Shown piece after piece: positions 134-1,595 of a stretch of 2,543 nt of DNA (positions are counted from its first letter, which is position 1; each line of letters begins with the position of its first letter). Where the stretch lies: the NCBI RefSeq assembly GCF_024298765.1, contig NZ_CP101218.1. One strand, written 5' to 3'. The notes under the pieces were generated by a model. The model worked only from the letters and a program-made list of their open reading frames with translations, was not told the DNA's origin and ran no database searches. This DNA is from Escherichia coli. GTDB taxonomy: Bacteria > Pseudomonadota > Gammaproteobacteria > Enterobacterales > Enterobacteriaceae. The position numbers and the translations under genes were made by a program.

Positions 134-559
134 ATGACTAAAAATAAACGTAGTGGTTCAGAAGTACGGCAGAGAACTAAGGTTATCACCCTTAGAGTAA
201 ATAACAGAGTCGCAAGCGAAATCAGACGGCGAGCGAAGAACGAAGGACTGACAATTTCAGAATATATCAGGACGGCAAGTTTAAATAATGAAATAAAACA
301 GCGCGTACCTTCCAGGTATTTAGATGAATTAATCCGACTTGGTCGGATGCAGAAGAAATTATTTGATAAGGGAAAGCGGCCGAAGGATAAGGAGTACCTC
401 GAGGTGATGCATAAAATAATTTTACTTTGCGATGAAATGAAAATAGTAACGAAGCGAATTTCTGATGTATATAATGAAATGGATTTAATAAAGGATGAAA
501 TAAAAATAATAAAAAGGATACATAAAGATAAATATCCAGGTTCGGATTTATTCAAATAA
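134..559 (+). CDS. mobC: Ribbon-helix-helix DNA-binding protein, MobC/MbeC-like plasmid mobilization accessory protein (141 aa). The frame is open to the window start, so alternative starts at ATG 23, TTG 11 or off-window cannot be excluded.
   Basis: ORF track frame 11..559. ATG at 134 is preceded by GGAGAG with a 9-nt spacer. The N-terminal basic tail followed by RTKVITLRVNNRVASEIRRRAKNEGLTISEYIRTASLN fits the RHH beta-strand/helix/helix pattern (R-x-I-x-L-R-V ... G-L-T-I-S-E-Y-I-R) typical of MobC-type relaxosome accessory proteins; the C-terminal half is charged and helical. TAA stop at 557-559. Confidence 0.6.
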   Translation: MTKNKRSGSEVRQRTKVITLRVNNRVASEIRRRAKNEGLTISEYIRTASLNNEIKQRVPSRYLDELIRLGRMQKKLFDKGKRPKDKEYLEVMHKIILLCDEMKIVTKRISDVYNEMDLIKDEIKIIKRIHKDKYPGSDLFK

Positions 560-755: not shown

Positions 756-1307
756 TTAACTAGATTTATCCTCTTGTTTTTCAATTGTATTTTTTCTCTC
801 AATCACAGTTGTAAACGCGATTCTGTCACCATTAAAAACAAAGTTAGGGTTAATGAAATACCTTCCTTGTCGCATTGTTTTTGCAATTATTTTCGCTTTT
901 TCCAATTCATTAAGACCTCGCTTAAAGGTTGCAAGACTTAGTCGTAATGGTTGTTTACTCGCAGAAACTTGGCACTGAAGAAACGCTTCTAAAACTAAGG
1001 TATCCAAATCAACTTCGTCTTTTGAGAGTGCAGAGTTCTGAACGGACCAAACTAAAACACCGAAGGCTTTAATTCCCGCAGAAGATAGCTCAAAAGTTAA
1101 GCCAATATTTGCTGTAAAAAGTTTTACAAACTGTTCGCTATCAACACGTTTATATGTTGTTACGTGAGTACCTTGAACCTCACCTGTGTTCTGATTGACC
1201 AGGATGTTATCATCACGACCTAGACGCGAAAGCCTAACTTGCTTCCCCTTGACAGGTACAACCATTCCTTCTAAAAATGGGTTTTCTTTATAGCGACCGA
1301 AGCTCAT
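756..1307 (-). CDS. repL: Plasmid replication initiator, RepL family (winged-helix DNA-binding), 183 aa
   Basis: ORF track 756..1307 (-). ATG at 1305-1307 on the minus strand is preceded by AGGGGTG (SD-like) with about a 5-nt spacer. The protein carries motifs I recognise from RepL of staphylococcal pSN2-type plasmids and phage P1 RepL: NTGEV near the N-terminus, a central FVKLF...GL segment, and a C-terminal LNELEKAKIIAK...YFINPNFVFNGDRI (compare LKILEEGNIIKRK...LMLNPELLMRGDD). Family assignment is from memory, not a search. Confidence 0.8.
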   Translation of the reverse strand: MSFGRYKENPFLEGMVVPVKGKQVRLSRLGRDDNILVNQNTGEVQGTHVTTYKRVDSEQFVKLFTANIGLTFELSSAGIKAFGVLVWSVQNSALSKDEVDLDTLVLEAFLQCQVSASKQPLRLSLATFKRGLNELEKAKIIAKTMRQGRYFINPNFVFNGDRIAFTTVIERKNTIEKQEDKSS

Positions 1308-1476: not shown

Positions 1477-1510
1477 ACGGTAGTGCGTACGTGCTCAATT
1501 TAGCTACCGG
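1477..1510. repeat. Degenerate additional copies of the GCTAC/GTAGC iteron motif
   Basis: ACGGTAGT (1477-1484) and TTAGCTACCGG (1500-1510) match parts of the 15-bp iteron. Between them lies the palindromic core TGCGTACG. Confidence 0.3.
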
Positions 1511-1515
1511 TTCTT

Positions 1516-1573
1516 TTCCGCTTCCTCGTCGATTCGCTCACTACGTTCGGTCACCGACTTGCGGCGAGCGGTA
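1516..1573. other. Primosome-assembly-site-like segment (ssi/pas) resembling the region just downstream of the pMB1/ColE1 origin
   Basis: Window sequence TTCCGCTTCCTCG...CGCTCACT...GTTCGG...TGCGGCGAGCGGTA shares, in the same order and orientation, an 11-13-mer, an 8-mer and a 14-mer with the pBR322/pUC backbone (CTTCCGCTTCCTCGCTCACTGACTCGCTGCGCTCGGTCGTTCGGCTGCGGCGAGCGGTATCAG) as I recall it. Not verified by a search. Confidence 0.4.
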
Positions 1574-1595
1574 ACAACACTCGCGCATTGCCGTC

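Follow-up and report, generated by a model that had tools for sequence, protein, structure and literature searches.

A putative phiX174-type primosome assembly site in a small RepL/MobA plasmid of Escherichia coli

The question raised by this locus is what a sequence resembling the primosome assembly region of pMB1 and ColE1 is doing in a small Escherichia coli plasmid, on which strand it would act, and whether it reveals the direction of the replication fork. An earlier note on positions 1516-1573 of the window (the whole 2,543-base stretch of DNA analysed here) had proposed the resemblance from oligomers shared, in the same order, with the pBR322/pUC sequence about 150 bp downstream of the origin, and had taken it to suggest a conserved lagging-strand priming site and, by analogy, a fork moving from right to left.

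The plasmid and the homology of the element

The 2,543 bases of the window make up an entire small circular plasmid: in L004, a related plasmid, the sequences of its two ends adjoin each other (833 to 835), and pGF4-G, a 2,535-bp E. coli plasmid in which mobA and repL are the only annotated features, matches 100% of it at 99.2% identity. The repL gene (756-1307, minus strand) encodes 183 aa with a modest match to the Pfam RepL family (PF05732, E = 2.3e-6), is so annotated in the RefSeq records of relatives, and has a product 71-73% identical in amino-acid sequence to the RepL proteins of L004 and L005. The mobA gene (134-559, plus strand), encoding a NikA-like ribbon-helix-helix relaxase accessory protein, scores 99.3 bits against the NCBIfam MobA model NF041264 (cutoff 80); no relaxase gene is found in the 2,543-base plasmid. 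The window has no Rfam match of any kind, even at E<=1, and hence no RNAI, with a tool that detects RNAI in ColE1 and eight other loci, and the best similarity to the ColE1/pMB1 origin within 1574-2400 is 25 bits, as against up to 31 bits for shuffled sequences. The presence of a ColE1-type replicon is rejected on these two grounds, and the plasmid is of the RepL/MobA type, approximately 2.5 kb in size and not ColE1-like.

The resemblance of the element itself to the pMB1/ColE1 primosome region was nevertheless borne out. Both TTCCGCTTCCTCG (1516-1528) and TGCGGCGAGCGGTA (1560-1573) are single-copy in the window, with a start-to-start spacing of 44 nt, and both are found at the identical 44-nt spacing in a pMB1-derived vector (L016, positions 260 and 304) and also in ColE1, where they lie on the opposite strand. 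Local alignment (SW) of window 1478-1580 gives a score of 32 against pMB1 and 38 against ColE1, which is 10-14 SD over the values for 200 shuffles (14.7 +/- 1.7, maximum 21). BLASTN of the element finds 80.6% identity to ColE1 over 62 nt and 75.4% to pMB1 over 65 nt. The alignments as a whole span 62-91 nt at 71-81% identity with the same flank spacing, and the homology is well beyond chance. The pMB1/pUC reference used in the comparison proved 100% identical to vector-derived records. The proposal that three oligomers occur in the order seen in pBR322/pUC stands only in part: TTCCGCTTCCTCG and TGCGGCGAGCGGTA are homologous, while CGCTCACT (1535) keeps its order but not its offset, starting at +19 in the window and +11 in pMB1. 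This difference of 8 nt in register implies that it reflects the internal CGCTC repetition of the element and not a homologous match.

The conserved block is wider than first flagged. In ColE1 and several other plasmids its left edge lies at about 1483 (GTGCGTA..GTGCTCAAT), and the full block, 1483-1573 on the minus strand, aligns with ColE1 1396-1307 at 71% over 91 nt; L001, L002, L004, L006 and L015 match from approximately the same position at 74-95%. The core flagged earlier (1516-1573, minus strand) largely coincides with the most widely conserved portion, around 1508-1572, and nhmmer detects one copy of the element in the window, a minus-strand hit spanning 1575-1514 with E = 6.6e-19. 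The centre, ACGYTCGGTC, is likewise conserved between ColE1/pMB1 and the window. In ColE1/pMB1 this stretch is described as ssiA, or n'-pas, at which the lagging-strand primosome assembles in a PriA-dependent manner (PMC3167613, PMC5778457). The block at 1483-1573 is probably a phiX174-type primosome assembly site (an n'-pas, homologous to ColE1/pMB1 ssiA) that functions on the minus strand.

Distribution, structure and selection

The element is an ordinary, widespread plasmid module. A 103-nt block containing it matches 4,653 PLSDB records, and the backbones that carry it include 1.5-kb pKL1 or Col(MG828)-type plasmids, small Rep_3 plasmids, ColE1-type, IncX1, IncFIA, IncR, IncI2 and RepL plasmids, and plasmids of Arsenophonus, among which the sequence flanking the element is unrelated. 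In a pattern scan of genome contigs, 150 of the 205 matches had no conserved centre and were discarded as chance occurrences in GC-rich genomes. Ten ColE1-type origins could be located through RNAI, and every one of them has the element downstream of its predicted RNA/DNA switch. The core is about 50-175 nt past the origin in nine, and the remaining one has a restriction-modification cassette between the two. The position of about 150 bp downstream of the origin, as put forward earlier, therefore holds for ColE1-type plasmids, and the arrangement agrees with what has been published on ssiA, or n'-pas (PMC3167613). Outside plasmids, seven contigs of approximately 8 kb from Ff-like inoviruses carry one or two tandem copies between M13-type genes I and IV (gene I, phrog_1675, 4e-51; gene IV, phrog_1012, 7e-117). 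In a curated phage collection in which the inovirus lineage is unrepresented, the sole matches are 1.4-1.9-kb records resembling pKL1-type plasmids.

The closest relatives of the element are found in plasmids of the pHUSEC2011-3 type. The annotation 'phiX174 primosome assembly site' is reported for the counterpart in pHUSEC2011-3 (a 1.5-kb plasmid of E. coli O104:H4, of pKL1 or Col(MG828) type) and in pColZ, a relative 98.5% identical to the O104:H4 copy being so labelled (PMC6668396). The 1549-bp pKL1-type plasmids match the window at 84% over 1482-1612 and at 90% over 1693-2000, and in pHUSEC2011-3-type plasmids an oriT-like stretch abuts the element. They differ from the window in encoding an unrelated HTH RepA and in having no mobA, whereas in the window oriT and element are separated by about 1.4 kb, occupied by a module of mobA and repL.

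One alternative is that the element is a non-functional hitch-hiker, a crossover point shared by small plasmids that has been inherited at a module boundary and has no priming role here. Homology to unrelated plasmids (L001, L002, L006 and L202) does start abruptly, at 1482-1485, placing the element at a module junction in what is a highly mosaic plasmid family, and its fold energies, described below, are unremarkable. Against this, RepL plasmids that share just 71-74% identity all have the element in one orientation and at a constant distance of about 175 bp from the start of repL, and all ten RNAII origins agree in the way the element is oriented towards them. Compensatory arms and invariant flanks, retained across thousands of plasmids and in phages, also argue for purifying selection on structure. 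Such a passive role is accordingly regarded as highly improbable.

The structural comparison used 33 unique true copies of the element, the consensus of which is CCGCTTCCTCG - arm - TCGCTCRCT-ACGYTCGGTC - arm - (Y)TGCGGCGAGCGG. The two arms form a helix, H2, pairing 1528-1533 (GTCGAT on the plus strand) with 1553-1558 (ACCGAC on the plus strand). They are complementary within each copy and vary between copies, with about 10 arm types in 23 combinations (GTCGAT/ATCGAC, GTTTAT/ATAAAC, CTCAT/ATGAG, GTCTGT/ACAGAC, GACC/GGTC, GATC/GATC, CCCA/TGGG and GCCA/TGGC being among the pairs seen). Column covariation on a MAFFT alignment was unusable, as bulges and indels shift the H2 arms out of register, and an arm-swap permutation was substituted: a copy's own arms pair at -4.8 kcal/mol, as against -2.85 for swapped arms, and the observed mean was reached in none of 5,000 permutations. 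The own-arm energies are equal on both strands, and hence the test does not tell the strands apart. Individual pairs are more informative in this respect, since 1532:1554 is a T.G wobble on the minus strand and an A.C mismatch on the plus strand, although in L011 and L012 the trend is opposite, at least one terminal H2 pair being G.T on the plus strand. Of all the copies, those of the ColE1/pMB1 subtype have the most weakly pairing H2 arms, whereas the window copy is well paired; given that ColE1/pMB1 is the subtype studied experimentally, H2 may not be what PriA needs.

Enclosed by H2 is the conserved centre (1534-1552, minus strand; TCGCTCACTACGTTCGGTC on the plus strand), as defined by the alignments. 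Positions 1540 and 1546 within it co-vary (A/T with G/C) in 32 of the 33 copies, which could be linkage, given their separation of 6 nt. A second, candidate helix, H3, is the only one returned by RNAalifold on the MAFFT alignment, with changes that are one-sided; it would pair 1569-1564 (GCTCGC on the minus strand, in the 5' flank) with 1541-1536. Its pairs are standard on the minus strand in all 33 copies, and the sole variation is between G:C and G.T, seen at two pairs in 12 copies each; on the plus strand, the G.T would become C.A. H3 crosses H2, implying a pseudoknot or alternative states. The fold energy of the single-stranded element, on either strand, is no better than that of dinucleotide-shuffled sequence (z of about 0.2), and a fold constrained to contain H2 is less favourable than the minimum free energy fold. 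An outstanding fold energy is no strict defining feature of a primosome assembly site, and a pseudoknot or a protein-stabilised fold would escape such a test. Taken from the alignments, the compensatory helix and the invariant flanks indicate that the element is under selection on structure.

As covariation in the helix fits an RNA or either DNA strand equally, another possibility is that the element acts in a different mode, as a transcribed RNA or as a double-stranded site for binding or recombination (an Xer-like half-site at GTGCGTA, or a site for Rep or a host protein). The GTGCGTA with which the block starts resembles the XerC arm of cer, and the extended block is overlapped by a fourth copy of the TTAGCTACCG repeat, at 1498-1509. 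In L005 and L002, however, this copy is not conserved as a repeat of the Rep type, and a BLAST of the whole of ColE1, including cer, against the window returned the primosome site match alone. No Rfam family matches the element, its counterpart in ColE1/pBR322 has, according to the literature, been defined by experiment as an effector site for PriA (factor Y), and its strand-specific placement in single-stranded DNA phages favours a role in single-stranded DNA. A different mode of action therefore appears very unlikely, and a primosome assembly site remains the preferred reading.

Active strand, origin and fork direction

The motif GAAGCGG, found at 1518-1524 and read from 1524 to 1518 on the minus strand, includes AAGCGG, the hexamer common to factor Y or n' sites. 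In phiX174, GAAGCGG is on the viral strand, in the hairpin between genes F and G. In ColE1 it is found on the RNAII-sense strand, at 1356, and in all ten RNAI-defined origins it is this RNAII-sense, displaced strand that carries it. In the inovirus contigs it is on the coding strand, which in Ff-type phages is the packaged single strand. These placements, together with the wobble pairs that are standard only on the minus strand, are the reason for regarding the minus strand as active; the element presumably works on this strand when it is single-stranded. In this respect the strand polarity implied by the earlier note was right, as the GAAGCGG strand is the minus strand of the window, and DnaB loaded there would translocate 5' to 3', from right to left.

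The direction of the fork is a separate matter, which depends on where the origin lies. A repeat search identified an inverted repeat (GGTAGCTCAAAA / TTTTGAGCTACC, with a 10-nt spacer) and a direct repeat (TGAGCTACCGTAG) at 1352-1411. They lie between repL and the element, 70-130 bp to its left. The architecture of these repeats is constant while their sequences differ by plasmid (GAGCTACCGTAG; GATAGACCGTCT in L004 and L203; GAGCTTACAAGG in L005), and they are best read as RepL-specific sites, a candidate operator and/or origin (dso or oriV). Between these sites and the element lies a 20-mer, TCCCTTCTTAGTTCTTAAC (1459-1478), that is invariant in four RepL plasmids. The same arrangement is seen more generally: at the Rep-protein loci examined (RepL type 1, the L202 type, pKL1 RepA, Rep_3 in L001 and L065, IncX1, IncFIA, IncR, L012 and L184), the rep gene or Rep sites are always left of the element in window orientation, whereas the RNAII origins of ColE1-type plasmids are right of it in 10 of 10 cases. 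The polarity of the element relative to the origin is thus opposite in Rep-protein plasmids and ColE1-type plasmids. The suggestion that the ColE1 analogy fixes the fork direction was consequently not upheld, the plasmid encoding RepL, containing no RNAI and having its RepL repeats on the left.

To the right of the element lies a hairpin-rich, non-coding GC block (1735-1990), which accompanies it in plasmids with three unrelated rep modules, being found also beside RepA in L204 and in the IncX4 plasmid L205; this implies that the block is Rep-independent. Considered as coding sequence, the region (1573-2003) has no codon periodicity (53/59/59), and considered as a structured RNA it has many hairpins and zero compensatory pairs in five sequences. 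In the window as a whole there are 11 one-mismatch matches to the DnaA box, where 6 +/- 2.6 are expected, none of them close to the element.

It is the GC block that makes a ColE1-style use of the primosome site conceivable: from a host-driven, Rep-independent origin on the right (about 1600-2000), leading-strand synthesis would displace the minus strand, on which the site would start lagging-strand synthesis, with the fork moving from right to left. Such an arrangement would explain why element and block move as one module across three unrelated rep genes, why the block is extremely conserved despite being non-coding and rich in hairpins, and why plasmids bearing it are typed as 'Col(MG828)' whatever their rep gene; it would also put the origin on the same side as in the ten ColE1-type origins. 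Several observations argue against it. As described above, RNAI is absent and 1574-2400 is not ColE1/pMB1-like beyond the level of shuffles, while the block shows none of the compensatory changes that would support an RNA. A promoter scan of the window, uninformative in itself, returned a single weak promoter-like site, outside the block. The Rep-specific, co-varying repeats are on the left, and pKL1-type plasmids are reported to use RepA, with oriV upstream of rep and hence on the other side (PMC3832669). This version of a functional site is thus considered unlikely.

The opposite polarity leaves three geometries for the vegetative exposure of the minus strand, namely displacement from the right, exposure by a helicase from the left, and displacement of the minus strand during rolling-circle replication; the ColE1-like approach from a right-hand origin is the least likely of these routes. 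The third is suggested by the order of features on the minus strand, where the element, the inverted repeat (1384-1353) and repL follow one another as do sso, dso and rep; alongside this inverted repeat, no rolling-circle nick site or nicking motif was identified. Enterobacterial RepL plasmids are not known to replicate by a rolling circle. Plasmids of the RepL/PF05732 (RepL/pSN2) family are classed as rolling-circle replicons, which need a single-strand origin (PMC5703833, PMC9600348).

Conjugation offers another route by which the same strand could be exposed. Positions 20-106 are an IncI-type oriT on the minus strand, 76-77% identical to the corresponding sequence of I-complex plasmids of approximately 90 kb, where its homolog in the IncI-gamma/K plasmid L201 lies immediately upstream of a mobA(nikA)-relaxase locus, and homologous also to L002 396-481. 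The oriT core, TACACATCCTGTCCC, is conserved; on the minus strand it reads TACACATCCTG and then TCCC, with the nick predicted between 29 and 28. Under the MOBP rule, the nicked strand is the one transferred and mobA enters last, so that the minus strand is predicted to be the conjugative T-strand, the same strand as that on which the primosome site would be active. The mobilisation by R64 of NikA/oriT plasmids devoid of a relaxase is known (PMC9282650).

Proposed mechanism and relation to known priming systems

These observations can be combined into a model, patterned on the established pathway of ColE1 and phiX174, in which the minus strand, once exposed and coated with SSB, would fold through the 6-bp helix 1558-1553/1533-1528 around the conserved centre, flanked by CCGCTCGCCGC and GAGGAAGCGG. 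The folded strand would be recognised by PriA, after which PriB, DnaT and DnaC would load DnaB to run 5' to 3' along the minus strand, from right to left, and primers made by DnaG would be extended rightwards, converting the exposed minus strand to duplex. In vegetative replication, exposure may follow from initiation at the RepL repeats (1352-1411), which come shortly after the element when the minus strand is read 5' to 3', whether by displacement of the minus strand in a rolling-circle or strand-displacement round or by helicase unwinding from a RepL-opened origin; in conjugative entry, it would follow from nicking and transfer of the minus strand at the oriT (20-106). The dependence of the window copy on PriA, the route of exposure and the nicked strand are all points that we infer by analogy. 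The conserved lagging-strand priming site of the earlier note is therefore retained as a homolog of the PriA-dependent ssiA, or n'-pas, that is under selection, while the geometry of a lagging strand behind a ColE1 origin does not carry over.

Comparison with characterised systems places the element between several of them. The L-strand n'-pas, or factor Y site, of ColE1/pMB1 (ssiA of pBR322) is a direct homolog with GAAGCGG on the same relative strand, within an RNAII/RNAI replicon instead of a RepL one and with the candidate origin on the opposite side of the element. The complementary-strand origin of phiX174 (the n' site between F and G) shares the proposed mechanism, in which PriA acts on a hairpin in SSB-coated single-stranded DNA (PMC5778457), and has GAAGCGG on the single-stranded form; it shows no extended sequence homology, and the strand that it turns into replicative form is that of an entire phage genome, as opposed to an exposed plasmid strand here. 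The single-strand origins of rolling-circle plasmids (ssoA, ssoU and ssoW, including those of the RepL/pSN2 family) have in common with the element the order of element, inverted repeat and rep, and are similarly orientation-specific, non-coding, structured and exchanged as cassettes. Those of Gram-positive plasmids differ in being mostly primed by RNA polymerase and unrelated in sequence, and a rolling-circle mode is only a candidate for the window plasmid. Finally, the G-site or ssi signals, such as that of R1 oriR, are priming signals located some hundreds of bp from an origin opened by a Rep protein, on the strand that templates synthesis away from it, and the element has this same polarity in the Rep-protein plasmids compared above. 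The R1 G-site, compared by description alone, is a primase-only signal of the G4 type and not of the PriA type.

A more general reading, which is possible but at present doubtful, is that in Rep-protein plasmids the primosome assembly site serves as a portable complementary-strand origin of opposite polarity, with the rep gene or Rep sites 3' of it on the active strand, and not as a start for the lagging strand downstream of an origin. It might then act as the sso of a RepL plasmid with rolling-circle or strand-displacement replication, prime the T-strand in the recipient cell and, having been captured by filamentous phages, provide them with an extra minus-strand origin; in this reading it would fold as an H2/H3 pseudoknot.

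The element is standard equipment of enterobacterial plasmids, and its basic identity and mechanism are already textbook knowledge. Recognising it nonetheless aids annotation of very small cryptic plasmids such as pGF4-G, a large part of which is non-coding, and it shows where plasmid modules have repeatedly been joined by recombination. The new points are modest, consisting of the compensatory helix, the consistent strand in single-stranded DNA phages, and the finding that Rep-type and ColE1-type plasmids have the origin on opposite sides of the element. Such comparative points could guide work on how complementary-strand synthesis starts in small Rep-protein plasmids and in mobilised plasmids.

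Transfer origin and the interval between repL and the pas

An IncI-type oriT is found at 20-106, immediately 5' of mobA/nikA, with its core at 38-25 on the minus strand. This minus-strand core, TACACATCCTG|TCCC, is common to the window, an IncI-gamma/K plasmid and 1.5-kb pKL1-type plasmids. The minus strand is predicted to be both the strand that is transferred and the strand on which the primosome assembly site (pas, 1483-1573) would be active.

Upstream of repL, an inverted repeat and a direct repeat occupy positions 1352-1411. The units of these repeats vary among RepL plasmids, with all copies switching jointly between GAGCTACCGTAG, GATAGACCGTCT and GAGCTTACAAGG; they are probably the binding sites specific to RepL, or the origin. 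Between the Rep repeats on one side and the pas on the other lies the 20-mer TCCCTTCTTAGTTCTTAAC (1459-1478), identical in four RepL plasmids within a surrounding region that is approximately 27% divergent.

Variation and distribution of the pas

Within the conserved centre of the pas, positions 1540 and 1546 co-vary, the two bases being A and T or else G and C, in all but one of the 33 unique copies (32/33). The state of the two positions changes even inside otherwise identical arm types, the variants of the surrounding helix. This co-variation could reflect a base pair, or mere linkage of sites only 6 nt apart.

The element is also carried by Ff-like filamentous phage contigs of about 8 kb from IMG/VR (L149, L150, L157, L158, L159, L160, L161 and L164), as one copy or as two tandem copies approximately 340 bp apart, in the spacer that separates genes I and IV. 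In every case the strand-marking motif GAAGCGG is on the coding strand. No close relative of this Ff-like lineage was found in the curated phage collection. Two larger IMG/VR contigs, L185 (46 kb) and L187 (85 kb), have three to four copies inside about 5 kb, in both orientations. Matches of 84-90% to the element were observed in three records of the phage collection submitted as Escherichia phages (OR844749.1, OR844798.1 and OX638291.1; 1.4-1.9 kb), which by size and content look like pKL1-type cryptic plasmids and not phages.

The GC block and the right-hand segment

The non-coding, hairpin-rich GC block (approximately 1735-1990, or 1573-2003 in its wider extent) is almost unchanged across plasmids with three unrelated rep modules, and portions of it are also found beside RepA in the 28.6-kb plasmid L204 as well as in L205, an IncX4 plasmid. 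A search of the block for codon periodicity, an Rfam match and compensatory pairs found none of these. It is this block that Col(MG828) typing seems to detect. The adjoining segment, 2003-2143, is missing from every close relative (L002, L004, L202 and L203), and contains a perfect 12-nt inverted repeat (2010-2021/2075-2086). In this segment, hairpins that look terminator-like by eye precede T-runs at about 2078-2146 of the plus strand.

The pas as a possible boundary between plasmid modules

The common 2.3-kb relatives, among them the 2310 bp plasmid L202 (AP026524.1), carry oriT-mobA together with the pas and GC block, as the window does. Their 165-aa rep ORF (871-1368 in L202) is named RepL in RefSeq relatives; neither BLASTP similarity to the window RepL nor an NCBIfam match was found for it. 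In the ColE1-type plasmid L011 (NZ_CP104531.1, 4496 bp), a ScaI-family restriction-modification cassette separates the RNAII origin from the pas; the downstream distance to the pas is consequently approximately 2.3 kb instead of about 100 nt. Homology with the otherwise unrelated plasmids L001, L002, L006 and L202 begins sharply at 1482-1485, the left edge of the pas. This abrupt start in the alignments suggests that the pas is a recurrent recombination junction at which plasmid modules are joined.
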